Assembly (NCBI GenBank): GCA_900128395.1
Contig: LT649292.1
Coordinates: 1-44,689 of the forward strand
DNA: 44,689 bases
Direction of reading: 5' to 3'
From: Stramenopiles sp. TOSAG23-2
Taxonomy: Eukaryota
Shown piece after piece: positions 2,972-33,976 of the stretch. The translations under genes and the position numbers were made by a program. The notes below the pieces were generated by a model. It searched no databases, was not told where the DNA came from, and was given only the letters and a program-made list of their open reading frames with translations. Numbering within the stretch: position 1 is the first letter of the stretch; every line of letters starts with the position of its first letter.

Positions 2972-3607
2972 ATGTATAGAATAATTATTGCATTTATATT
3001 TGTATTAAATGTACAAAACTTTTGTCCATCAATAGCAATAAATGTACAACCGTTAACCGACAAAAATTTTGAACATTTAACACAAGCATCTTCAGGAATG
3101 ACCACTGGTGCTTGGTTTGTTAAATTTTATGCACCTTGGTGTGGTCATTGCAAAGGTTTAGCACCAACATGGGAAGAATTAGGCGTGGAATTGAAAACGG
3201 AAATGACAGTTGCAAAAGTCGACTGTACTAAAGAAAAAATGACATGTAAAAGGTTTGGCGTACGTGGATATCCAACTTTAATTTTATTAAAAAATAGTTT
3301 GCAATATCGATATGCTGGTGAACGAAATAAAAAAAAATTACTTGAGTTTGCGCGTGTGAAAGGTACGGATGAAGATGACGATGACGATGAAGGTATGGTT
3401 ATACCAAAACCAAGAAGTGCTATGGAACAATTTATTGGTGATACAACAGCAATGTTGAATAAAGATTTAATTGAATTATGGCGATATAAAAAAACTGCAA
3501 TTGGTTTTACATTATTTATTGGATTTATGTTGGGTGTCGTAGTTGGTTGTTTGTTTAGTGGCGGTAGTACTTCTTCTTCTTCATCACCAAAACGAAAAAA
3601 TGAATAG
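2972..3607 (+). CDS. ER membrane thioredoxin-domain protein (TMX/PDI-like)
   Basis: Signal peptide, WFVKFYAPWCGHCK active site, GVRGYPTL, C-terminal TM helix, dilysine-type tail KRKNE. Confidence 0.9.
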   Translation: MYRIIIAFIFVLNVQNFCPSIAINVQPLTDKNFEHLTQASSGMTTGAWFVKFYAPWCGHCKGLAPTWEELGVELKTEMTVAKVDCTKEKMTCKRFGVRGYPTLILLKNSLQYRYAGERNKKKLLEFARVKGTDEDDDDDEGMVIPKPRSAMEQFIGDTTAMLNKDLIELWRYKKTAIGFTLFIGFMLGVVVGCLFSGGSTSSSSSPKRKNE

Positions 3608-3800: not shown

Positions 3801-4814
3801 TCAAGCTGTTTGGTTGTTGTTACTACTATTATTATTACTATTATTACTATCAACGTTACTATTATCTGTACTAGGTTTTGGTTCAATATTACCATTATTT
3901 GTTGCAGTAATATTATTGCTTTCACCCGCTTCAACATTGCTAATTTCACTTTTTGCTACTGGTGCGAAAAAATTATTAATTGTATTATTTTGTTCCTGTT
4001 CAGTAGCTGCACCAACTGCACTATTACGCTTTTTAGAAACTTTTGAACGGCGATTAATTGGTGGAAAATCTTGTGCTAAAAATAACATTTGTTCATTTTT
4101 ACGTACAGTTGCAGAGATATCTTCATATTTAATCATCTTTTTTTTCGTTTTTTTACATACACTAAATGCTTCATCGGTCAATTGGCCAAGAAACAGCTCA
4201 GTGCACCATTGAACAAGCAAAGTAGCTTCCTTGGAAGTTCCTTTAACTTCTTTATCCAATTTCATAATTTTTCTAACTCTTGCCGTTGGCAATATATCCA
4301 CAATACGAGGTGGACCCATCATACCATCAGGTCCAAATTTAGCAGCTTCGAATAATTTCAATTGGTTATTGTATTCTTCCAAGTCTTCCTCGTATTGTTG
4401 TTGCAGTGGAATACGTTGCGCACTGTATTCCGCCTTTTTCTCGTCTGAAAGTTCGTTCCATAAACGTCCCAATTCTTTCCCAATCTGACCGATACCCCAT
4501 GTTGGAAATTTTTCCCGAACACTACTTCGAACTTCATTCATAAATATAAAATAAGCAGATTGTGGCCTTTTAGGTTTCACTGGTGGCATACTATTATCTC
4601 TGGCGGGTTTTTTACTATTGGTAGCACTACTGTTACCATTACTATTACTACTACTATTGTTATTGGACATTTGATCATCTCCATCTACGTATTCCGATTG
4701 AAATGATTCCACATGTTGTTCATTCATATCTGTATCCATTTCTTTCGCTTCCCCATTTTCATTTTTCGTTTTTGTTGGGCTTGGTGCTTCGTTTGTTGTT
4801 GTTATCGATGCCAT
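3801..4814 (-). CDS. HMG-box protein fused to an H2A-like histone fold (NF-YC/DPB3/CHRAC1-like)
   Basis: KPKRPQSAYFIFMNEVR..IGKELGRLWNELSDEKKAEY (HMG box), then LPTARVRKIMKLDKEV..TELFLGQL..KKMIKYEDI..MLFL (histone fold). Start placed at ATG 4814 (MASITT) because the ORF extension to 5075 only reads through an AT-rich tandem duplication. Confidence 0.88.
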   Translation of the reverse strand: MASITTTNEAPSPTKTKNENGEAKEMDTDMNEQHVESFQSEYVDGDDQMSNNNSSSNSNGNSSATNSKKPARDNSMPPVKPKRPQSAYFIFMNEVRSSVREKFPTWGIGQIGKELGRLWNELSDEKKAEYSAQRIPLQQQYEEDLEEYNNQLKLFEAAKFGPDGMMGPPRIVDILPTARVRKIMKLDKEVKGTSKEATLLVQWCTELFLGQLTDEAFSVCKKTKKKMIKYEDISATVRKNEQMLFLAQDFPPINRRSKVSKKRNSAVGAATEQEQNNTINNFFAPVAKSEISNVEAGESNNITATNNGNIEPKPSTDNSNVDSNNSNNNSSNNNQTA

Positions 4815-4866
4815 ATTTTTTGTATATATATAATATATATATGTGTGTGTGTGTATGTATGTATGA

Positions 4867-5062
4867 ATGAATCGTATATTTTGTAGGTATATAATATTTA
4901 TTCTTATTCTTGTATATATATATCTACATAATATATATATATTGTTGTGATATGTATTTCTCCTTATGAATCGTATATTTTGTAGGTATATAATATTTAT
5001 TCTTATTCTTGTATATATATCTCTACATAATATATATATTGTTGTGATATGTATTTCTCCTT
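4867..5062. repeat. Near-perfect tandem duplication, unit ~99 bp, upstream of the HMG/histone-fold gene
   Basis: atgaatcgtatattttgtaggtatat...gatatgtatttctcctt at 4867-4965 and 4966-5062; copies differ in the (TA)n tracts. Confidence 0.92.
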
Positions 5063-5501
5063 GTTGTTTGTACATTCTAATTTTTCTAGTAATAAAAAAT
5101 GAAGTTTTCTATCTTGTTGCGCGATGTGGTGTGAGTCGTGTGGTGTGTGATCTTCATTCATTTTTTATTATTTTTGTTGTTTGTTGAATTTGATAATTTG
5201 AGGTATGTTTAATGTTGTGGCCCTGTTGCCGCCATCTGTTTTAGTTTATTCAAATCTTTTTTTGGAAATTATCACACTTTTCAAGCACAAAAAAACAGTA
5301 TAGCTCCCAGGGGAGCTCCTTTCCTATATATTATGGCGTCTAAAATTATACCTTAATTGGCCACACAGCAGAGATACTCCTCATACTATATGGCCTTCCA
5401 GCCTTCCAGCCTTCTTCTTTTTTTTTCTAGTTCAACAATTGCTGGAATTATTTTATTTACAATGCACCAATGTTGTGCCAATATTGAATATTGAATGTTA
5501 T

Positions 5502-8507: not shown

Positions 8508-8704
8508 ATATGATTACTCTCCTCTAGTATAACCTCACACAACACATACATAAAGATGTTATTGTCACCATCATACCAGAATCACCATGCCATTACACGG
8601 CGTATATGATTACTCTCCTCTAGTATAACCTCACACAACACATACATAAAGATGTTATTGTCACCATCATACCAGAATCACCATGCCATTACACGGCGTA
8701 TATG
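8508..8704. repeat. Perfect tandem duplication, unit 96 bp, covering the 5' UTR and first codons of the sulfurtransferase gene
   Basis: atatgattactctcctctagtataacc...ccattacacggcgt starts at 8508 and at 8604. Confidence 0.95.
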
Positions 8705-10190
8705 TATGATTCAAAGAGCATTATGGTTCTCCTCATCAACAACAAAAAGTAATAGACAAAATGTTTTAATGTCTACTGATGATTTATTACATAAAATTAA
8801 TTCAGGAAATAAATCTTTGTACATTTTTGATGCATCTTGGCATATGCCAGCTGCTAACCGAGATGGCAAAGCAGAATTTATACAACATCGGATACCAGGA
8901 AATACACATTTTTTTGATATTGATCGTCTTGCGGATATAAATACTGATTTACCACACTCATTTCCAAACAAAGATATTTTTCAGAATTATATAAATAACG
9001 ATATTCAATTAGTAAATAATTCAGAAGTTGTTGTTTATGATTCTGTTGGTATGTTTAGTGCCGCGCGATGTTGGTATATGTTTAAGTACTTTGGTCATCC
9101 AAATGTAAAAATGTTAGATGGAGGTTTAACAAAATGGATTAGTGAAAATAAACCTATTGTTTCTGGAGATGAAGCTCATCATTTTAACGATACAAATAAT
9201 AATATTTTTCAAGCATCTGATCATTTAGACTCATCCACATCAATTGTTCCTTTGATTGATATGGATCCAAACAATACTAAATCTTCTAGTAGTGACATGA
9301 ATCAATTCACTATTTTAGATGCTAGGTCATCTGATCGATTTTATGCAAAAGTTTCAGAACCAAGGGCAGGTATACGTTCTGGTCATATTCCTGGATCCAA
9401 CAATATCCCATTCAATACACTGCTTAAAAATCCAAGTGACATGGATTCATTTTTAGAAGACAAAGAGTTATTGAAATTATTTCATGATGCAGGAATAGAT
9501 TTATCCAATGATTCAAAACCAATAGTAACTACATGTGGATCCGGTGTTACTGCATGTGTCATCATAGCTGCAATGGAAATATTAGGTAGAACAAATAAAG
9601 TTCGACTTTTTGATGATAGTTGGACTGGCTATGGTGGTAGTGACTTTGAAGTTTCAATTAAAAATAAAAAATTAATCGACAAGCTATTTGCAAAATGTGA
9701 TATACGTGTTGGTGAAATGTTAAAAGTTACTCCAGTATTTGGAAGTGACAAATTATACTGCGAAGAAATTGATGTTGGCGAGGAAAAGCCTAGGCAAGTT
9801 GTTAGTGGTATAGCACCATATTATACACCAGAAGAATTAGTAGGTAAAAAAGTATTGGTTGTGTGCAATATAAAAAAGAACAAAATTAGAAAAGTTGATT
9901 CGTTTGGAATGATTCTTTGTGCGGAAGATACGGAGAGTGGAATAGTAGAAATTGTTGAACCACCAAGTCATGTAAAAAATGGAGAGCAAATATTTTTAAT
10001 TGGTGAATTTGAAAAGGATATAACAACTGCAAATCAAATGAAGAAAAGGAAAATATTTGAAAATGTTGTCACACATTTAAAAAGCAATGATAACTGTATA
10101 GCAACGTTCGATGACATCCCGTTAATTGTTGGAAATGATAAGAACAATATTTGTATGGTAAAAAATGTTAGAAACGGTTGGATAAAATAA
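8652..10190 (+). CDS. 3-mercaptopyruvate sulfurtransferase (tandem rhodanese) fused to a C-terminal EMAPII/Arc1/Trbp111-like tRNA-binding OB domain
   Basis: FDASWHMP, HRIPG, AARCWYMFKYFGHPNVKMLDGGL, LDARSSDRF, EPRAGIRSGHIPGS, active loop TCGSGVTAC; then DIRVGEMLKV..DKLYCEEIDVGEEKPRQVVSGI..VVCNIK..SFGMILCA..IVEPP; Arg/Ser-rich, acid-free N-terminus. Confidence 0.92.
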   Translation: MLLSPSYQNHHAITRRICMIQRALWFSSSTTKSNRQNVLMSTDDLLHKINSGNKSLYIFDASWHMPAANRDGKAEFIQHRIPGNTHFFDIDRLADINTDLPHSFPNKDIFQNYINNDIQLVNNSEVVVYDSVGMFSAARCWYMFKYFGHPNVKMLDGGLTKWISENKPIVSGDEAHHFNDTNNNIFQASDHLDSSTSIVPLIDMDPNNTKSSSSDMNQFTILDARSSDRFYAKVSEPRAGIRSGHIPGSNNIPFNTLLKNPSDMDSFLEDKELLKLFHDAGIDLSNDSKPIVTTCGSGVTACVIIAAMEILGRTNKVRLFDDSWTGYGGSDFEVSIKNKKLIDKLFAKCDIRVGEMLKVTPVFGSDKLYCEEIDVGEEKPRQVVSGIAPYYTPEELVGKKVLVVCNIKKNKIRKVDSFGMILCAEDTESGIVEIVEPPSHVKNGEQIFLIGEFEKDITTANQMKKRKIFENVVTHLKSNDNCIATFDDIPLIVGNDKNNICMVKNVRNGWIK

Positions 10191-10369
10191 ATATTATACA
10201 GTTCGTATGTATTACGCGTATGCCATACATACAAGGAAAAAAATAATTGTTGGAAATGATAAGAACAATATTTGTATGGTAAAAAATGTTAGAAACGGTT
10301 GGATAAAATAAATATTATACAGTTCGTATGTATATATATGTATGCCATACGTACATACAAGAAAAAAAA
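10123..10369. repeat. Tandem duplication (offset 121 bp) of the sulfurtransferase 3' end, stop codon and 3' UTR
   Basis: taattgttggaaatgataagaac...ggataaaataaatattatacagttcgtatgt starts at 10123 and at 10244. Confidence 0.92.
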
Positions 10370-10530: not shown

Positions 10531-10923
10531 CACTCTTCTCTTCTCTCTCCTTATACGTCGTACGTATATTATTAGTTCGTACATTTATAAAAATATAAAA
10601 GACAATGATTAATGATTTTATATGGTCATATATGCATATATCATCTCTCAAACTTTATAAACATACACACTTCCAAATTGATAACACGAGAAGTGTAAAA
10701 TTATTATAACTTAGATTTTAACCATCATATATATATTTAAAAATATAAAAAAAAAGCACGAACACTCTTCTCTTCTCTCTCTCTCCTTATACGTCGTACG
10801 TATATTATAGTTCGTACTCGTACATTTAAATATGACATATAAAAGACATGATTAATGATTTTATATGTTCATATATGCATATATCATCTCTCAAACTTTA
10901 TAAACATACACACTTCCAAATTG
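10531..10923. repeat. Diverged direct duplication (~150 bp) of the RecQ 3' end and UTR
   Basis: cactcttctcttctctc...catctctcaaactttataaacatacacacttccaaattg at ~10531-10680 and ~10763-10923, with several indels. Confidence 0.88.
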
Positions 10924-13734
10924 TGGAGTAAATCCAGCACGACGAAGATTCATCCACCATGTAATTTTTCTATACCAATAAGATATTTCTTGTTGCAAAC
11001 TTTCGCTTCTCTCTTTGTAATCAACAGAAGCTTTGGCTTCACCTACGATAAATGGCAACAACAATTTCATTTGAAACTTTTCAGTTGCCACGACATTCAT
11101 GTTAGCACTATTACTAGCAATTTCAATCTTTTCCCACTCTTTTTCGGTTGGTGGAGGAATAATATTGTTGTTTGGTGCTGCTAACCTTTTCAAATTTACA
11201 GGATCACCAAGTGTAAGTGCCTTCATTACATGTGATACAACCGTGAATGGTTGAATCGTTTTACCATTTTCAGGTCGCATTGCTATTTGTTCTATGGTCT
11301 CACCACCATTTTGAAACCTTTCATAACTTGAACGATGGGAACCTTTTCCCTCTTTTGCAAATAACCATGGTTTTTTTGGTTTAAAACTTTTATTTTCTGG
11401 AAACACCATTGGAGGATCAGAAGCATCCAAGGATAAGCTATCAGTTTTGCTAAAAAATTCGTTAACAGACTTTAACATAATTGCAGCAAGCTCCTTAACT
11501 GTGCGAATTCTAACACCAATTGACTCTAATGCCTCTACCGTAGTTGGTTTGACATAAGCAATTTGTCGCATAACATGTCCCGACATGACATTATGAGGCG
11601 CCATTCCAAATTCTACCGATGTTGCTAAACGCCACTTTTCAATGCGTCCCAAGAGCTCTTCATGATTCTCTGCCTCTTTGTTCCTTCCACGATCACAGAG
11701 CGATTTTAATTTGTATATCCAGTTAGTATATGCATTCAAAATAGGGCCAGCTCCTGCTTGTAATTCTGACAATGGAATCACAGATAAATCGATACCCTTT
11801 GATATTAAATCATTCTTGGTTCTCTCAATGCGCTCTTGCTTCTTTGTTTCAATTTCAATCAATATGTCCGGTACTGGCAACATAACTTTTTCGTTGTTAA
11901 TGTTATTTAATACTCTTCTAGCTTTTACAGTGAGATTGTAGACTTCGTAAGAACGATATCCCATCGGATTCTTTTTGGTACTCCTTGATAAATATTGATT
12001 TCTAACCAAAGCAGGCAGTAATGAAGCAAAAATAGCTTTGGATTGCTCATTTCTTTCAAAGTTACGACGAAGATTTGGATTGTTCTCAAATACTTCCTTC
12101 ACTTCATCCACTATCTTCGTCTTAGCAATTGCTGTATTCCCAAAGTTTTTCATGGCAGTAAAAATAACATGAGCATGATTTATGAAATCTCTTGTCATTG
12201 ATTGGCTGCTGTTGTTATTCTTATTGCTATCTTGTTTTATGCAATTATCACAATTCCCACAAGTAGTTCCAAAAGCAGGTGTTTCATTAAAATACTTCAA
12301 TATTTGGCATCGTCGACATGTAAAACCATCTTCAACAAAGTTTCTTAAATAATCACCACTTTTATTTGACATTTCAATTGCTTTTGCAGATAAATTTTTT
12401 GTATAAAATGGTGATTTATATCGAACAAAATCGGATGAAGAATAAAACATATGGCACACGGACTCTAAACCATCTCTTCCACCTCGTCCAATATGTTGAT
12501 AGTATTCTTCCATAGTTTTTGGTGTGCCATAATGAACAATTCTTCTAATATCTGGTTTGTCAATACCCATACCAAATGCGATGGTGGCAACAATCACAGT
12601 AAATTGTGAGCTTAAAAACCCTAGGTGTGCTGTATTACGAGCTTCCGTGGTCATACCTCCGTGATACGATGCAACAGCGGTAGTGCCTAAAGCATTTCTT
12701 AGAAACGTCACAACTTTCTCTACGTCATTCTTTGTTGGGCAATAAATTATAGTACTCTCATTTTTATTCTTCCATGTATCCATTAACTGTTTAAAATCAC
12801 TCCCAATTCCACCTGTACTTTTTGATTTTATGACAAGTTTTAAATTCTCTCGATCGAACGATGATTTTGAAACAAACGTATTATTTTTCGACAATCCCAA
12901 GCAATCTAGAATGTCGCTTTGCACTTGACTCCCTGCGGTAGCTGTAAGTAAACAAAGTGGAACGCCAGGAAGTTTTTGCTTTATTATAGATAATTTGCGA
13001 TAATCGGGGCGAAAATCATGCCCCCATTCGGATACGCAGTGTGCTTCATCGATTGCAACAAATCCAATCTTGTTTCTCATTTGATCTAAAAAGGAAGATG
13101 CGGCAATTTTTTCAGGTGTTAAATACACCAAAAGGTAATCTCCATTAAGTGCTTTTCTTTCAACCAAAGGATTCATTTGTGCAGAACCTAAATAACATGC
13201 GATATCAACAGATGTGAGGCTGTTTAATTTCTTCACTTGATCAACCATTAGTGAAATTAACGGCGATATCACTAACGTAATCTTTTTACTATACAAAGAT
13301 GGTAGTTGGTAGACCATGGATTTACCTTTTCCTGTAGCCCAAAATACGGCTGTATCGATTCCGTTTAACAATGCTTTAATACAATCTAATTGTCCATCAC
13401 GAAATTGATTGTAGCCGTAATATTTGAATAACGTGCCTTGAAGCGCTGAATCATCATTATTAGAAGAAAAACTTGGAATTTCAAGTGTTTCTGTCGTTGC
13501 TTTCTCCATTTCAACCATTGCAACATCACTATTATTACTATTTATACGGCGTTTCTTATTTGCAGATTGTTTCACTTCTTCTTCAATAATCTTATTCCAA
13601 TCAATATCGTCATCATTACTGGCTCCATTTAAATCATTGTTATTGGGCGTTGTAGTAGTTCGCTTTTCTTTTATTTTCCTCGATTCTTCGAGCAATATCA
13701 GGGGAAATAGTAGTTGTTTTTTTCTTTCCGCCAT
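10891..13734 (-). CDS. RECQ: RecQ family 3'-5' DNA helicase (helicase core, Zn-binding RQC, HRDC-like and C-terminal HTH-like regions); the start is doubtful and it is probably fused to upstream Pif1
   Basis: FRDGQ, ATGKGKS, SPLISLMVDQV, DEAHCVSEWGHDFRPDY, ATIAFGMGIDKPDIR, YYQHIGRGGRDG, CRR..CGNCDNC; HRDC-like IEKWRLATSVEFGMAPHNVM. Confidence 0.93.
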   Translation of the reverse strand: MAERKKQLLFPLILLEESRKIKEKRTTTTPNNNDLNGASNDDDIDWNKIIEEEVKQSANKKRRINSNNSDVAMVEMEKATTETLEIPSFSSNNDDSALQGTLFKYYGYNQFRDGQLDCIKALLNGIDTAVFWATGKGKSMVYQLPSLYSKKITLVISPLISLMVDQVKKLNSLTSVDIACYLGSAQMNPLVERKALNGDYLLVYLTPEKIAASSFLDQMRNKIGFVAIDEAHCVSEWGHDFRPDYRKLSIIKQKLPGVPLCLLTATAGSQVQSDILDCLGLSKNNTFVSKSSFDRENLKLVIKSKSTGGIGSDFKQLMDTWKNKNESTIIYCPTKNDVEKVVTFLRNALGTTAVASYHGGMTTEARNTAHLGFLSSQFTVIVATIAFGMGIDKPDIRRIVHYGTPKTMEEYYQHIGRGGRDGLESVCHMFYSSSDFVRYKSPFYTKNLSAKAIEMSNKSGDYLRNFVEDGFTCRRCQILKYFNETPAFGTTCGNCDNCIKQDSNKNNNSSQSMTRDFINHAHVIFTAMKNFGNTAIAKTKIVDEVKEVFENNPNLRRNFERNEQSKAIFASLLPALVRNQYLSRSTKKNPMGYRSYEVYNLTVKARRVLNNINNEKVMLPVPDILIEIETKKQERIERTKNDLISKGIDLSVIPLSELQAGAGPILNAYTNWIYKLKSLCDRGRNKEAENHEELLGRIEKWRLATSVEFGMAPHNVMSGHVMRQIAYVKPTTVEALESIGVRIRTVKELAAIMLKSVNEFFSKTDSLSLDASDPPMVFPENKSFKPKKPWLFAKEGKGSHRSSYERFQNGGETIEQIAMRPENGKTIQPFTVVSHVMKALTLGDPVNLKRLAAPNNNIIPPPTEKEWEKIEIASNSANMNVVATEKFQMKLLLPFIVGEAKASVDYKERSESLQQEISYWYRKITWWMNLRRAGFTPQFGSVYVYKV

Positions 13735-15418
13735 TCATATTATCATTATCAACATCCATACTACTGCTGCCCGTATTACTGTTGTTATTATTATTATCAA
13801 ATGCATCGACATTTATATTATCCCAAAACGCAGCTGTTTCGTCATCGTCATAAATACTTCCTTCAGGTTTCTTGTAAAATTCAAGTACTGCTGGATGTGC
13901 TTTCACTGCTCTGTTAGTAATTGGGGGGCCGGTTATCCACAACCCTTCCCGGGAAACGCAACGGCTTAAAGCTACATATGTTTGGCCATATTCAAAAGCT
14001 TTTGATGCATCTATAAGGCATCGTGATAGTGTCATTCCTTGACTTTTATGAATTGTTAATGACCATGCTAACTTCAATGGAAATTGTATTCGTGTCATGC
14101 TCCCTGAATTACCCATTGCAACAAAGAAATCAAACGGAAAAATGCATACCTTGCGACCATTATCAAACTCAATGTATGGACATAGTACGCCTTTATTTTC
14201 GTCACTTTTATTATTCTCTGCATTGTAAAACAATCTAAGAACTTTTCCTCTTATTTTTGATTTATCAACATCATTGGCCCTTTTACGGACAAATTTACGA
14301 ACAACCCCACGGGAACCATTTACCAAAGTATCATCAAGGTTTCTCAACAATACAACTTGTGCACCAATCTTTAACTTGAGGTCTTTCGCAATCCTTTTTT
14401 CTGTCAAATCCTGTAATTTGTCCATTATTCGTTTTTCTATATTTGTTGTCTCAAATTCATCTGTAGCTTCAAATTTTACTAAACTTGAGTCTAAAGTATT
14501 TAATCTCCGTTCGTTTTCAGCGTCAACGTTTCTATTAAGACTCCGTAATTCTGTTGGAAGTATTCCATCCTTTGGCAAAGGTTTGTTATTTATATGACAA
14601 TTTTGAAACAGTTTTAACGCAGCATCTGTTACATTTCCCAACCTCACTTGATTCAGAATTTCAATAAGTTCCATGTCCCCTTGTTGACGAACTACTTCTG
14701 TTAATTTTTGTGTCCTCATGTTCATCTTGTTCCAAACTGAAGAACGAAAAGCAAAATCTTTCCCGTTTCCGAGTCCAACCGGTGGTAATTGTAGAAAATC
14801 ACCACACGTCACTACTTGTACACCTCCAAATGGTTCGGAATTTTCTCTTACATACTTTCCTACTTCACTTAGTTTTTCCAATAACTCACTGTCAACCATT
14901 GAAATTTCATCAATTAGAATGACCTTTGCGGATATCCAACGACCTCTAGCAGCTCGAGACAATTTTTTACTAAGAAAATGAGCACTCTCCTTCCCTAATC
15001 CAATACCAGCCCATGAATGAAGAGTTTGACCGTTAATATTTACAGCAGCAATACCAGTGGGAGCAGTGATGGCAATTTCATATACTTTGTACTTTTCCTT
15101 CAGTGTTTGAATTACATATTTGAATAAATATGATTTGCCAGTGCCAGCAACACCAGTCAAAAATATATTTTCTCCTGTAAGGATTAAATCTGCAATCTCT
15201 CGCTGTTTTGTATTTAAAGAGGAACGTGTTATGGTTGATTGCATTTCACGAATTTTTTTCTCTGTCTTCTCTGCAATCTTTTTGTGTTTTGAACTGATTC
15301 CACCGACATTATTTATTAAAACCCTTGATGCCTTTTTTTTCTTATTGTAATTTTTTGATGAGGAGGAGGAAGAGGAGGAAGCTCCCCCGTTACCATATGA
15401 ATAGTGCCAATTGCTCAT
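13640..15418 (-). CDS. PIF1: Pif1 family 5'-3' DNA helicase
   Basis: GVAGTGKS, TAPTGIAA, GQTLHSWAGIG, IDEISMVD, GDFLQLPPV, VVRQQGD, LVNGSRGVV, QFPLKLAWSLTIHKSQGMTL, FEYGQTYVALSR. Confidence 0.95.
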   Translation of the reverse strand: MSNWHYSYGNGGASSSSSSSSKNYNKKKKASRVLINNVGGISSKHKKIAEKTEKKIREMQSTITRSSLNTKQREIADLILTGENIFLTGVAGTGKSYLFKYVIQTLKEKYKVYEIAITAPTGIAAVNINGQTLHSWAGIGLGKESAHFLSKKLSRAARGRWISAKVILIDEISMVDSELLEKLSEVGKYVRENSEPFGGVQVVTCGDFLQLPPVGLGNGKDFAFRSSVWNKMNMRTQKLTEVVRQQGDMELIEILNQVRLGNVTDAALKLFQNCHINNKPLPKDGILPTELRSLNRNVDAENERRLNTLDSSLVKFEATDEFETTNIEKRIMDKLQDLTEKRIAKDLKLKIGAQVVLLRNLDDTLVNGSRGVVRKFVRKRANDVDKSKIRGKVLRLFYNAENNKSDENKGVLCPYIEFDNGRKVCIFPFDFFVAMGNSGSMTRIQFPLKLAWSLTIHKSQGMTLSRCLIDASKAFEYGQTYVALSRCVSREGLWITGPPITNRAVKAHPAVLEFYKKPEGSIYDDDETAAFWDNINVDAFDNNNNNSNTGSSSMDVDNDNMNGGKKKTTTISPDIARRIEENKRKANYYNAQ

Positions 15419-29270: not shown

Positions 29271-31170
29271 TCAGTAATAGCTAATTCCACTATTCGTGCT
29301 ATTGCCACTTGAACTGTTACTTGAATTACTTCTAATGCTGCTAGAACTGCTAATAGTAGAACGGCTTTCATCGTCTTTATACAACATGGGCTGTTCATTA
29401 TCATGTTGTTGTTGTTCTTGCTGCTGCTGTTGCCCTTTCTTCTTCTCAACACGATTTGCATCTGTATTACCATACATTATCCAATTTTTTATTATGTCAT
29501 TGTTTGATTTTCTACTTTCAAAAATATAATCAAGCGTTTTCACAGTTCGTTTATTAGGATATACGCAGGTGAAATTTGTTGTGGATGCCCTATCAAATTC
29601 CTCTTTAGTTTCCAATAAAATGTCTCTTCGTGGTTGATTTGTTTGTGATTTTGCTCCTGTTGGCACTCCAACAATATGCAATGCATCGGTCAACATTCCA
29701 TATTTTAATCGTTTATCAAATGGAGAGGCACTCATCATGGATGGATAAATATTTACCTCGATTAAATACACTTTCAAATTTTCATCAAACATTAAATCGA
29801 ATCCAAACAATTCAAAACAACATTCATCGCGCCCACGCATCCCAACGCATTTTGGATAACATTCACTCTCAGCTGCAATTAACGTTTTCGCAGCAACATC
29901 TTGCATATCACGTAATAATTTCTTTGTATCCCTACCCTCCACCTTCAATTTATTTAAAAATGAGCTAAACGATTGTTTCGAACCGGTATCATCTTCATCT
30001 GCACTTCTATTTTCAACAAAATCATCACTATTTTTATTGATAGAATAATTTGTTAAATGTTTGTACGAATCTTTCAATTCATTTGCATTTAAATTGTACT
30101 CATGCGTACATAAACGAACCATGCCTTCATTATACATATATACTCTTAATGGATTAAAGCTTGTAACCATTACATAAAATCTACAATCAAATTTACGATT
30201 GTCAATTAAACATGGGTTGCCGATGTAACGTTGTACCTGAATTTTGTATATATATTTATACATTCATGAAAAATGTTAGATTTTTTTCCTAACAAATATA
30301 AAGTTGTTTTTATACAAACTGTCGAATATATATATATATACAGATAGTACGAATATAAATCTAAATCCTACTTACATTCCAAACCTTATTCTTTGTTTCG
30401 CCAGTGCTTTTTAATTTACGTTTCAATGGTAAATTTTTCACATCTTTTGTTCTCATGACTTTGATGCCACGGCCACAACTTCCGCCTTGTGGTTTACAGA
30501 TCCATACATCATCTAAATCTACCTCGCCTTTTTTCAATTTCTTCTTCTTTCCTCCACGACTTTTCATATTTTTTTGACGTTCCACATCTGCATAAAAACG
30601 CTCAATATCCATAGGATTTCCACGTATAATATGTGTTTCAGGAAGAAAGCTAAATGCATCATCACGCAAGCGACGTTGAAAACGACGAAATAAAGTTGCA
30701 CAACGATCTTTGGCTCCAATACAGCCAGTTCCAGGGAATGAATTGACTCGCTTATGCATCGGTAAATGTCTATATGCATCATTCGGTAAATGTTTTCCCC
30801 ATAATACATCCCATGAATTATCTTCTTTATCAAGACAACGTGCAAAACCAGCTTCTCGAAAAACAGCTTTGACAGAATTTCGCATCCAATACGTTTTATA
30901 TTTTAAATCAAGCAAACGGCGAGGTCCATGTGATTGTTCAGTTGATCGCTTGGCTACTTTAGCAGCATCAGGATAATCGAAAAAAATTGTTTCATTACCA
31001 GTACGATATCTTGATGATAATAAAATAGGCTCTTTTCGTTTTGGTGATAGAGGCCAGTTTTTACGCCCAGAACTTTTAGATGATGCAGAAGAAGTGTTTG
31101 AACTGGTAGAGGATGGCCGTTTTTTTTTCAAAGATTTTTTTTTTTTTTTTGGTTTTGTTGTTAATTTCAT
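29271..31170 (-). CDS. TTLL: Tubulin-tyrosine-ligase-like polyglutamylase (TTLL4/5-like); exons 31170-30376 and 30236-29271, intron 30237-30375
   Basis: RVNSFPG, FLPETH, WICKPQGGSCGRGI; donor GTAAGT and acceptor TTCAG give VWN-VQRYI; RKFDCRFYVMVTSFNPL, EGMVRLCT, HLTNYSINK, FELFGFDLMFD, LIEVNIYPS. Confidence 0.93.
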
Positions 31171-31765: not shown

Positions 31766-33976
31766 ATGGAAAATAGTAAACATTCAGAACATAGTACTAT
31801 ATATACATCTAGTTATTTAAAAAAACGACAATCCATATCATATAAGTTAAATCAATTGTGCAACAAAAATATGAATAGGTTGTTACATTTAAAAGGAACT
31901 AAACGATACGTAAGAAGACCATGTACTAACTCTTCTTCGTTTATGAAAAATAATAACAATATAGTAAATAAAAAAAGAATGCCAAATTATATTTTTGATA
32001 AAAAATATTATAATAAAAAATTATTAAATAATATCATCAACAAACGTAAACAATATCATCTACCATCTTTATCTATTGTTAATGCTTTTAACTGGCATCA
32101 AAAGCGATTATTTTCGAAGGCTACAGTAAAACAAAATAAATCTAGTAGGGCATCAACGACTATATTCATATCGTCTTACATAAATAATGCGAATAATACA
32201 ATGTTTGAACAACGACGTACATTTGCAAAACAAAAAAAAGCAAGTAAAAGTAATCCAGGTGGTGGTATACCTGGTGAATTTGTCATGTCAGTACAGCAAC
32301 TGCAAAAAATTGTTGGCACTCGTACTTTATTTGACAATGTGACATTGGGTTTTTTACAAGGTGCAAAAATTGGTATTTTAGGTTTAAATGGTTGTGGAAA
32401 ATCATCATTAATGAAAATTTTAGCTGGTGTAGAGGAAGAATTTGATGGTGATTTTTGGAAAAAAGATGATTTAAAAGTTGGTTATCTAGCACAAGAACCG
32501 GAATTAAATGCTAAATTAAATGTACGTGAAAATGTCATGGAAGCGTTGAGAAAAGAACAAGATTTATTAAAACGCTTTGAAGAAATCTCATTGGAAATGG
32601 GTGAACCGGATGCTGATTTCGATAAATTAATTGAAGAACAAGGTGTAATTACGGAGGAAATTGATAAATACGATGCGTGGACCATTGATGATAAAGTTAA
32701 TCAAGCAATGCAAGCATTGCGTGTGCCAGAAGATGATTTAAGTGTCGAACATTTATCTGGCGGAGAACGTAGAAGAATTGCATTGTGTCGATTATTATTG
32801 GAAAAACCTGATATGTTGCTTTTAGATGAACCGACAAATCATTTAGATGCTGAATCTGTTGAATGGTTGGAACAATTTTTGAAACGATATGAAGGGACTG
32901 TTATTGCAATTACACACGATCGTTATTTTTTAGATAATGTTGCAGGTTGGATTTTAGAAATCGAACGTGGGAGAGCATTACCATTTGAGGGCAATTATTC
33001 TAATTGGTTGATTGCAAAGGAGAAACGAATGAGCTTGGAAAATAAAAAAGATGCATCTCGTAAAAAAGCTATTCAAAAAGAATTGGAATGGATACGTAAA
33101 AGTGCAAAAGGTCAACAAAAAAAAGGTAAAGCGCGTTTAAAATCCTTTGAAAAACAAAAAGATGAAGTTGCAAAATCGGATCAAGCAAATTTAATTGAAA
33201 GTGGATCAATCGTGATTCCAAACGGACCAAGACTTGGGAATAAAGTTGTTGAAGTTTCAAATTTAACACATACATTTGATGATGGGGAAAAACAAATTTT
33301 TGACAATGTATCATTTAAAGTCCCTAAAGGTGCTACAGTGGGTATAATTGGTGGCAATGGAATGGGTAAATCAACATTATTTTCCATGATATGTGGTGAT
33401 TCCGATGGTGGGTTAAAGCCATCGGATGGTGGCATTATTGATCTTGGAGAAAGTGTTCAAATTGGCTACGTTTCACAATCGCGTGATAGTTTAAATGAAC
33501 AAAATAGTGTGTACGAAGAAATATCTGGTGGTAATGATTATATAAATATTAATGGTACCGAAGTGCAAATACGCGCATACGTCTCTGCATTTAATTTGAA
33601 AGGTCCTGCACAGGAAAAACGTGTTGGTGATTTAAGTGGTGGTGAACGTAATCGTGTACATTTAGCAAAAACATTAAGCCAAGGTGCTAATTTGATTTTA
33701 TTAGATGAACCTACGAATGATTTAGATGTTGAAACATTACGTTCATTGGAGGAAGCATTGGGAAATTTTCAAGGTACTTCTATGATAATTTCCCACGATC
33801 GTTATTTTTTAGATCGTTTATGCACTCATATTTTAGCATTTGAAGGTGATGGTCGAGTTGATTTTTTTGAAGGTACATGGACAGAATATTTAAAAGAAGC
33901 AAAAACTAGTATACATCATAAAGATGATAGTGATGAAGGGAAAAAGAAACGATATCGTCCATTGAATTATTTTTAA
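31766..33976 (+). CDS. ettA: ABC-F translation factor of the EttA/ChvD type with a long basic N-terminal extension (start may be ATG 31871)
   Basis: GAKIGILGLNGCGKS, KVGYLAQEPELN, LSGGERRRIALCRLLLEKPDMLLLDEPTNHLDAESVEWLE, THDRYFLDNVAGWILE, KELEWIR..KGKARL, IPNGPRLG, LSGGERNRVHLAK. Confidence 0.93.
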   Translation: MENSKHSEHSTIYTSSYLKKRQSISYKLNQLCNKNMNRLLHLKGTKRYVRRPCTNSSSFMKNNNNIVNKKRMPNYIFDKKYYNKKLLNNIINKRKQYHLPSLSIVNAFNWHQKRLFSKATVKQNKSSRASTTIFISSYINNANNTMFEQRRTFAKQKKASKSNPGGGIPGEFVMSVQQLQKIVGTRTLFDNVTLGFLQGAKIGILGLNGCGKSSLMKILAGVEEEFDGDFWKKDDLKVGYLAQEPELNAKLNVRENVMEALRKEQDLLKRFEEISLEMGEPDADFDKLIEEQGVITEEIDKYDAWTIDDKVNQAMQALRVPEDDLSVEHLSGGERRRIALCRLLLEKPDMLLLDEPTNHLDAESVEWLEQFLKRYEGTVIAITHDRYFLDNVAGWILEIERGRALPFEGNYSNWLIAKEKRMSLENKKDASRKKAIQKELEWIRKSAKGQQKKGKARLKSFEKQKDEVAKSDQANLIESGSIVIPNGPRLGNKVVEVSNLTHTFDDGEKQIFDNVSFKVPKGATVGIIGGNGMGKSTLFSMICGDSDGGLKPSDGGIIDLGESVQIGYVSQSRDSLNEQNSVYEEISGGNDYININGTEVQIRAYVSAFNLKGPAQEKRVGDLSGGERNRVHLAKTLSQGANLILLDEPTNDLDVETLRSLEEALGNFQGTSMIISHDRYFLDRLCTHILAFEGDGRVDFFEGTWTEYLKEAKTSIHHKDDSDEGKKKRYRPLNYF

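Follow-up and report, generated by a model that had tools for sequence, protein, structure and literature searches.

What would a persulfide-carrying enzyme gain from a domain of the kind that holds on to tRNA? The question is raised by a gene at positions 8652 to 10190 (+) of contig LT649292.1 (assembly GCA_900128395.1, Stramenopiles sp. TOSAG23-2), all 44,689 nucleotides of which were analysed and are referred to here as the window. The gene encodes a protein of 512 residues, in which a 3-mercaptopyruvate sulfurtransferase (MST) of tandem-rhodanese type is joined to an EMAPII-like OB-fold domain. We read this protein, tentatively and somewhat short of calling it probable, as a tRNA-tethered persulfide carrier that binds the acceptor end of tRNA and serves a thiouridylase. 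Each half belongs to a known family and what is new is the combination. A preliminary description, made from the letters of the window, had considered the fusion uncharacterised; in agreement with this, no description of an MST or rhodanese protein fused to an EMAPII/tRNA_bind domain was found in the full-text literature, the coverage of which excludes subscription journals and supplements.

The fused gene and its relatives

The predicted features of the gene are as follows. Coordinates are positions in the window, and residue numbers are counted from M1 (nt 8652).

8652..10190 (+): complete coding sequence of the MST-EMAPII fusion protein, 512 aa, coordinates including the stop codon; alternative start M19 at nt 8706
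8652..8750 (+): N-terminal extension, residues 1-33, ahead of the conserved NRxNVL start of the enzyme
8751..9167 (+): rhodanese domain 1, non-catalytic, residues 34-172, with D89/D91 and H102
9168..9305 (+): linker between the rhodanese domains, residues 173-218, variable; it has a Ser/Asn-rich insertion that is lineage-specific, and its predicted local distance difference test (pLDDT) values are lower
9306..9638 (+): rhodanese domain 2, catalytic, residues 219-329, with R225 and R238
9534..9554 (+): active-site loop C295-G-S-G-V-T-A301, the same as the mouse and human MPST loop
9639..9701 (+): junction, residues 330-350, a short linker of 21 residues, GSDFEVSIKNKKLIDKLFAKCD
9702..9992 (+): OB-fold tRNA_bind core, residues 351-447
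9993..10187 (+): EMAPII-specific C-terminal sub-domain, residues 448-512, with a Lys-rich NQMKKRK segment

The open reading frame (ORF), which the preliminary description had called uninterrupted, indeed runs through 512 codons without a stop or frameshift, is unbroken in frame and in domains, and is closed by TAA. Because long open frames do not arise randomly at the G+C content around it (~32% on average), it is unlikely to exist by chance. The gene is a real, single-exon, nuclear gene, and its host is an uncultured marine stramenopile. Three findings given below point to such a host: the EukProt label of the nearest unfused enzyme homologue, the organisms of the named C-domain relatives, and the oomycete homologues of a neighbouring ABCF protein.

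The same architecture recurs in relatives. In a search of 5.8 billion proteins, four of the 120 matches listed, each standing for a cluster at 90% identity, have both Pfam domains together:

P0001: 99% identity to the window protein; 44 cluster members from several sources and assemblies
P0003: 62% identity; 1 cluster member
P0002: 61% identity; 3 cluster members
P0004: 53% identity; 9 cluster members, including a EukProt gene model

Absence of the fusion from relatives had been named in the preliminary description as a reason to give it up, and three further lineages, at 53-62% identity, carry it. The eight fused sequences that were aligned all run collinearly through the junction. Compared pair by pair, the four fused lineages are 64-83% identical in rhodanese domain 1, 60-94% in rhodanese domain 2, 50-80% over the 21 residues that join the modules, 61-84% in the OB core and 37-72% in the EMAPII C-terminal sub-domain, while the N-terminal extension reaches only 11-25%. 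Since identities in these regions are high, unlike in the extension, both modules and the joint between them appear to be under constraint, and we hold it almost certain, from this pattern of conservation, that the fusion is real and selected.

That the fusion is an artefact of assembly or gene calling, or a decaying pseudogene, is barely credible. Two perfect repeats lie at the two ends of the gene and may signal local assembly trouble, and one relative lineage is also present as two frameshifted fragments (P0182 and P0196). However, the full-length architecture is repeated in four clusters (P0001 alone has 44 members, drawn from several sources), the frame stays open over 512 codons at 32% G+C, and both domains are conserved. 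The repeats are:

8508..8603 and 8604..8699 (+): perfect tandem duplication of 96 nt, which takes in 5' flank together with codons 1-16
10123..10212 and 10244..10333 (+): perfect direct repeat of 90 nt, in which the end of the gene (22 codons and the stop) is copied together with 22 nt of 3' flank

The first ATG (8652) sits within the second copy of the 96-nt duplication. The upstream copy contains a mini-ORF of 18 codons from 8556 (17 residues, MLLSPSYQNHHAITRRI, followed by a stop), and we also noticed that it is identical to codons 1-17 of the main ORF. The duplication could be genuine, creating an upstream ORF, or could be an unmerged assembly overlap. The 99% identical database representative P0001 begins at M19 (nt 8706) and has 494 aa, and its fellow cluster members have 512 aa. 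Because the first ATG lies in the duplication and database gene calls use M1 or M19, the start codon is ambiguous, and the true N-terminus is M1 or M19. At the 3' end, the first copy of the 90-nt repeat alone is in the reading frame and the second lies 121 nt downstream; more direct repeats, of 31-53 nt and spaced 236-243 nt, lie in the intergenic DNA on the RecQ side (10542-10900). In a listing of sequencing runs, 20 runs from 9 studies contain part of the window, 14 of them recorded as RNA, with word shares of 0.21-0.33, which is no evidence of expression.

The fusion is confined to a narrow clade. HMMER, run over 1.84 billion representatives, found 16,557 matches, the best 150 of which, with scores above ~162 bits, were examined; one of these 150 spans both modules, namely P0002, which stands for the clade at 50% clustering. 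Pfam was run on 15 of the best 150, including all eight others of at least 380 residues, and found tRNA_bind in none of them. Among those 15 are two MST-GNAT fusions and one protein with part of a chorismate-binding domain before the enzyme. A metagenome scan confirmed four relatives among the 595 pattern matches listed, all of them unfused EMAPII-domain genes, with no DNA of a fused orthologue, and the ESM Atlas returned no usable match.

As for the origin of the two halves, the nearest unfused enzyme homologue among the best 150 of the 16,557 matches is P0145, a protein of 322 aa with 45% identity and the EukProt label 'Stramenopile-MAST_4'. It stops at '...SDFPVETKK', which is exactly the fusion junction, and has a basic N-terminal extension of its own. 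In the tree of C-domains the four fused lineages form one clade with a Shimodaira-Hasegawa-like approximate likelihood ratio (SH-aLRT) support of 100, set on a long stem, and the sister of this clade is left unplaced by a long-branch join. The nearest unfused C-domain relatives among the 120 listed are the C-termini of stramenopile methionyl-tRNA synthetases (MetRS), at 41-49% identity, and all organism-named C-domain relatives among the 120 (13/13) are from oomycetes, diatoms or Chrysoparadoxa. The simplest history is that a MAST-4-type enzyme orthologue gained an EMAPII domain once, in the ancestor of the four sampled lineages. The OB domain appears to be of the kind appended to stramenopile MetRS, a derivation from MetRS being suggested by the ranking of matches.

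The sulfurtransferase and the tRNA_bind module

Both the intact tandem rhodanese of MST/Tum1 type and the position of its CGSGVTA loop near 9534, as given in the preliminary description, were confirmed. Pfam finds Rhodanese (PF00581) in two stretches (E 2.6e-22, 79.6 bits, cut-off 22.2), and the loop occupies residues 295-301, exactly nt 9534-9554. In a sequence search of the PDB, residues 53-326 matched mouse MPST (1.2e-47), human MPST (3e-44), yeast Tum1 (7.7e-37) and E. coli SseA (6.5e-36), and Foldseek comparison of the AlphaFold2 model with solved structures gave template modelling scores on the target (TMt) of 0.87-0.88 for MPST, 0.82 for Tum1 and 0.87 for SseA. In the alignment with human MPST, residues D89/D91 and H102 of rhodanese domain 1 fall on its FFDID and DH(M)LP segments, and R225 and R238 correspond to both arginines of its DSR...EPRDG segment. 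We take C295 to be the persulfide cysteine, R225 and R238 to be the substrate arginines, and S297, H102 and D89/D91 to form the Ser-His-Asp set, as in MPST; C295 is accordingly the presumed persulfide carrier. The CGSGVTA loop, S297, R225, R238, H102 and D89/D91 are all invariant in the eight aligned fused sequences (8/8). The corresponding loop is CRKGVT in thiosulfate sulfurtransferase (TST), as opposed to CG[ST]GVT in MST. Judged by sequence, the enzyme half belongs to the MST/Tum1 family.

The AlphaFold2 model, built on an alignment of 47 sequences, has a mean pLDDT of 88.3 and a predicted template modelling score (pTM) of 0.79, with pLDDT below 50 at residues 1-22 and 24-29 only. A short helix is predicted in the junction (residues 339-344, pLDDT 87-89). 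In the Foldseek search no solved chain covers both halves (score on the query, TMq, at most 0.51).

The C-terminal half is, by its profile and fold matches, a member of the EMAPII-like tRNA_bind family. The preliminary description had claimed a complete EMAPII/Arc1-like domain, and this is borne out by a Pfam tRNA_bind match (PF01588, residues 351-445) that covers profile positions 1-95 of 96 (E 3.2e-28, 98.1 bits, cut-off 27) and by the end-to-end alignment of residues 347-512 (nt about 9690-10187) with residues 7-166 of human EMAPII/AIMP1 (1euj, E 2.7e-22). The same residues also match the TyrRS C-domain in the PDB sequence search (5.5e-25), and the OB core matches Trbp111 (1pyb, 4.4e-21). 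Foldseek gives a TMt of 0.92 for EMAPII 1euj over 167 columns and of 0.86 for Arc1p-C. The EMAPII C-terminal sub-domain takes the place of the dimer partner of Trbp111.

The co-crystal of Trbp111 with tRNA shows that the OB fold grips the 3'-terminal C75-A76 only and not the elbow, through contacts from E32, K33, K73, R75, I77, F78, S82 and M85, and that Arc1p has the same 3'-CA pocket (Juru 2024, PMC11286949). The preliminary description had assumed that EMAPII-like domains bind the tRNA elbow; this does not agree with the 3'-CA capture in that structure, and an elbow-binding tether was dropped as a candidate for the same reason (PMC11286949). It follows from this binding mode that the tether would be about one tRNA arm-length away from U34. 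The OB folds of TbMCP1 and Arc1p also deacylate Ala-tRNA, for which the equivalents of K73, F78 (Arg in TbMCP1/Arc1p) and S82 of Trbp111 are needed (Watkins 2025, PMC12021450).

When aligned to Trbp111 with HMMER, the 3'-CA contacts correspond to D366, K367, K408, N410, I412, R413, S417 and M420 of the window protein, with K408, S417 and M420 in the places of K73, S82 and M85. These three residues are invariant in the fused rows (8/8) and in the unfused relatives (116/116). Conservative variation is found among the fused rows at D/N366, K/T367 and I/L412, and the window lineage (2/8 rows) has N at 410 and R at 413, where the other 6/8 fused rows have A at both. At position 413 the 116 unfused domains, which are mostly MetRS-appended, have V in 74 cases, A in 22, G in 7, Q in 6 and R in 2; since Ala is frequent among them, it is normal for this branch of the family. 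The other contact positions vary within the range of synthetase-appended domains. The tRNA pocket, as far as its conserved residues indicate, looks functional although the domain has diverged.

A proposed tether for sulfur delivery and its alternatives

In yeast, Tum1 takes persulfide from Nfs1 on the Cys of its second rhodanese domain, stimulates Nfs1 and hands the sulfur to Uba4 for cytosolic mcm5s2U34, is required for efficient cytosolic s2U34 formation, and is present in both mitochondria and cytoplasm (Noma 2009, PMC2651780). The mediator from Nfs1 to Mtu1 is described as unidentified in the same paper (PMC2651780). Knockout of human TUM1 results in less thiolated tRNA (PMC9856076).

In the carrier reading that we favour, C295 would be loaded with persulfide from 3-mercaptopyruvate, or from Nfs1 as in yeast Tum1, and the OB domain would grip mature tRNA by its acceptor end. 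The sulfur carrier would thus be concentrated on its tRNA substrate, at a higher local concentration, and the sulfur would be passed to a thiouridylase at work on the same tRNA. If the presequence is used, the partner in question would be Mtu1, in mitochondria; a cytosolic protein would instead work with Uba4-Urm1-Ncs6. As it is without a PP-loop ATPase domain, the fusion protein cannot thiolate tRNA alone, and it would act as a tRNA-tethered link in the s2U34 sulfur relay and not as a thiolase. A shortcut route to thiolation, as envisaged in the preliminary description, would be conjectural. We know of no case in which Tum1 or MPST has been shown to touch tRNA, and natural fusions often expose partners that otherwise meet only transiently. 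The fusion would offer a testable model of substrate-tethered sulfur delivery in a small protein. It also takes the recruitment of the EMAPII/Trbp OB fold outside the synthetases and their cofactors.

Among known systems, Tum1 and MPST, the best matches of the fusion protein, have the same tandem rhodanese fold and the catalytic Cys in the CG[ST]GV loop of the second domain; however, they have no nucleic-acid-binding domain and work through protein relays only, whereas the fusion protein adds ~170 residues of EMAPII-type domain. The EMAPII-like or Trbp111-type domains (MetRS/TyrRS C-terminus, Arc1p, AIMP1/p43, TbMCP1) have the OB core, the EMAPII sub-domain and the K/S/M pocket in common with it, but are attached to synthetases or their cofactors and not to a sulfurtransferase. 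By analogy, the closest functional counterparts would be ThiI and Uba4/MOCS3. In bacterial ThiI (THUMP + PP-loop + rhodanese) a persulfide-carrying rhodanese is covalently joined to a tRNA-binding domain and to the thiolation machinery. Uba4/MOCS3 (E1-like + rhodanese) likewise resembles the fusion protein in having a persulfide rhodanese joined to thiolation machinery (Uba4 rhodanese role: PMC2651780). Both have a single rhodanese and an adenylating domain, whereas the fusion protein has a tandem rhodanese, an OB fold and no ATPase, and because of this missing ATPase it could only be a donor or adaptor, unlike ThiI and Uba4/MOCS3. Another protist MST with an extra C-terminal domain is that of Leishmania major (1okg), which is a Foldseek match to the model (target length 362); its extension is shorter and does not match the OB module, and the aligned pair has a root-mean-square deviation of 13.2. 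The C-terminal domain of Leishmania MST has a reported folding role.

Several observations weigh against a tRNA-tethered sulfur carrier. An OB domain of this type holds the 3' end, which is far from U34 (PMC11286949), and to hand sulfur over directly at the anticodon the protein would have to be arranged in an extended way or be helped by a partner. In yeast, deletion of TUM1 leaves thiolation of mitochondrial tRNA-Lys intact (PMC2651780), so that a mitochondrial role is without precedent. With its occurrence in one narrow clade, the fusion cannot be a general solution. The enzyme half scores 179.5 bits against the NCBIfam 3-MST equivalog NF008557, below its cut-off of 250, which we read as divergence and not as exclusion, the model having been built on bacterial SseA. 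The remaining points concern the OB domain, the ligand of which may have changed as it diverged. Its fused clade stands on a long stem; of the 69 positions conserved at 80% or more in the 116 unfused EMAPII-like domains, only 38 are retained by every one of the four fused lineages (the window protein alone keeps 49/69); the W-x-H-P hairpin is replaced in all four; and position 413 is Ala in 6/8 fused rows, whereas it is Arg in Arc1p, where R274A loses ~9-fold in binding.

This divergence can be taken further, to an OB domain without RNA binding, which would serve as a module for protein interaction or dimerisation, as a CsaA-like chaperone module, or as a dock of the MST onto a synthetase complex. 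Weak matches to the NCBIfam CsaA chaperone (4.8e-12) agree with this, as do the replaced hairpin and the 31/69 family-conserved positions that differ in at least one fused lineage. We consider it quite improbable nevertheless, as the three family-invariant pocket residues and the Lys-rich NQMKKKK segment are kept and the best matches in both sequence and fold are tRNA-binding members.

A second alternative, which we regard as unlikely but weightier than the former, is that the modules are uncoupled from tRNA thiolation. The enzyme would then be an ordinary MST, acting in H2S or persulfide formation, cyanide or redox metabolism, or sulfur supply for the molybdenum cofactor (Moco), and the OB domain would serve another purpose, such as RNA-dependent anchoring or regulation, or would be an independent aminoacyl-tRNA deacylase for trans-editing like TbMCP1 and Arc1p. 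MSTs are multifunctional, and human TUM1 takes part in Moco synthesis, H2S production and bioenergetics (PMC9856076). The K/R/S triad of MCP1/Arc1p (PMC12021450) is also complete in the window protein as K408, R413 and S417. However, the triad Arg is Ala in 6/8 fused rows, a change that abolishes the activity of MCP1 (PMC12021450), and the short junction, conserved at 50-80% down to 53% overall identity, argues for physical coupling. A conserved deacylase role of the clade was rejected on account of the essential Arg being Ala in those rows.

The pocket at the 3' end also brings up sulfur chemistry at the acceptor end itself, in which the MST persulfide would sulfurate an aminoacyl group held in the OB pocket (Cys-tRNA becoming Cys-SSH-tRNA, for instance). 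In its favour, the terminal CA is what this OB fold binds (PMC11286949), the MCP1 pocket takes small aminoacyl groups (PMC12021450), only a short linker leads to the catalytic rhodanese domain, and cysteinyl-tRNA synthetase has been tied to persulfide formation, with co-translational polysulfidation proposed (Akaike 2017, PMC5660078). This is set against the lack of a known precedent for an MST acting on aminoacyl-tRNA and of a tRNA-Cys specificity element, and such chemistry appears very improbable; that a eukaryote has a dedicated, genetically encoded co-translational insertion of persulfide, or other tRNA-dependent thio-amino-acid chemistry, is slightly less probable again.

The compartment, on which the choice between Mtu1 and Uba4-Urm1-Ncs6 as partner of the proposed carrier would depend, may be indicated by the N-terminus. 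Residues 1-33 include 4 basic, 0 acidic and 9 Ser/Thr residues, and in seven relatives and the two start variants of the window protein the extension has 15-52 residues with 2-9 Arg/Lys and 0-4 Asp/Glu. It is disordered in the AlphaFold2 model except for a helix at residues 14-26. From its composition the N-terminus appears presequence-like and would fit a mitochondrial presequence. The preliminary description, which quoted residues 13-35 and called the protein probably mitochondrial, is thus upheld in the presequence-like character, while the location itself is compatible with the evidence only.

A presequence followed by a tRNA-binding domain could also describe a tRNA import carrier, the precursor of which would bind the 3' end of cytosolic tRNA and enter mitochondria via the import machinery. 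The N-terminus is presequence-like in all lineages, rhodanese has been reported as an import factor of 5S rRNA (review PMC6468882), and preKARS2 as an import carrier of tRNA-Lys (PMC6468882, PMC3683045). Mammalian rhodanese (TST) is in fact a further known system to be compared, since this mitochondrial protein is also a tandem rhodanese and reportedly binds a small RNA, 5S rRNA (PMC6468882). In TST it is the enzyme that is said to make contact with the RNA, whereas the fusion protein has a dedicated appended tRNA-binding domain and an MST-type loop. We give the import carrier only a very slim chance, as the catalytic MST residues are strictly conserved, which would be needless for a mere carrier, and mitochondrial RNA import by such factors is itself debated, the review styling itself critical (PMC6468882). 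If a coupling to the aminoacyl end or to tRNA import were true, the finding would be still more unusual than tethered sulfur delivery.

Neighbouring genes and other fusions

The window is nuclear eukaryotic DNA, compact and mostly without introns, with genes that include NPL4, an HMG-box/histone-fold protein, RecQ, PIF1, a cyclic-nucleotide-gated channel, TTL and PTEN. Several of the neighbours are of interest in their own right. At 2972-3607 (+), 5 kb upstream of the fusion gene, lies a gene for a thioredoxin-domain protein of 211 aa, a proximity of little weight in a eukaryote; thioredoxin is a known acceptor of MST persulfide. An ORF at 3801-5075 (-) contains an HMG box and an NF-YB/histone-fold domain, which is an unusual pairing. 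At 10891-15418 (-), a RecQ ORF (947 aa, with HRDC) and a PIF1 ORF (592 aa) are arranged head to tail with an overlap of 95 nt in different frames. They could be separate, closely packed genes, or parts of a single gene model that contains an intron or a frameshift. The TTL-family gene at 29271-31170 (-) is found in two ORFs ~97 nt apart, which cover complementary positions of the Pfam profile (7-89 and 102-287) and are probably one gene with a short intron. The region 31766-33976 (+) encodes an ABCF protein of 736 aa of the bacterial EttA type, with ~55% identity to proteobacterial EttA and an N-terminal extension of ~150 residues. Its closest named eukaryotic homologues are from oomycetes, and it may be an organelle-targeted translation factor.

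Outside the window, a GC-rich metagenome contig (L001, 498-1190, +) encodes a stand-alone EMAPII-like protein of 230 aa with 41% identity to the C-domain of the window protein. Its long Arg/Ala-rich N-terminus resembles a transit peptide, and organelle-targeted free EMAPII domains may exist elsewhere. Each module is also found with other partners. MST is fused to a GNAT acetyltransferase in P0037, P0206 and P0277, and the EMAPII-like domain is fused to PF05962, GluRS and PheRS-alpha in a number of protist and metagenome proteins (P0297, P0385, P0398, P0400 and P0394).

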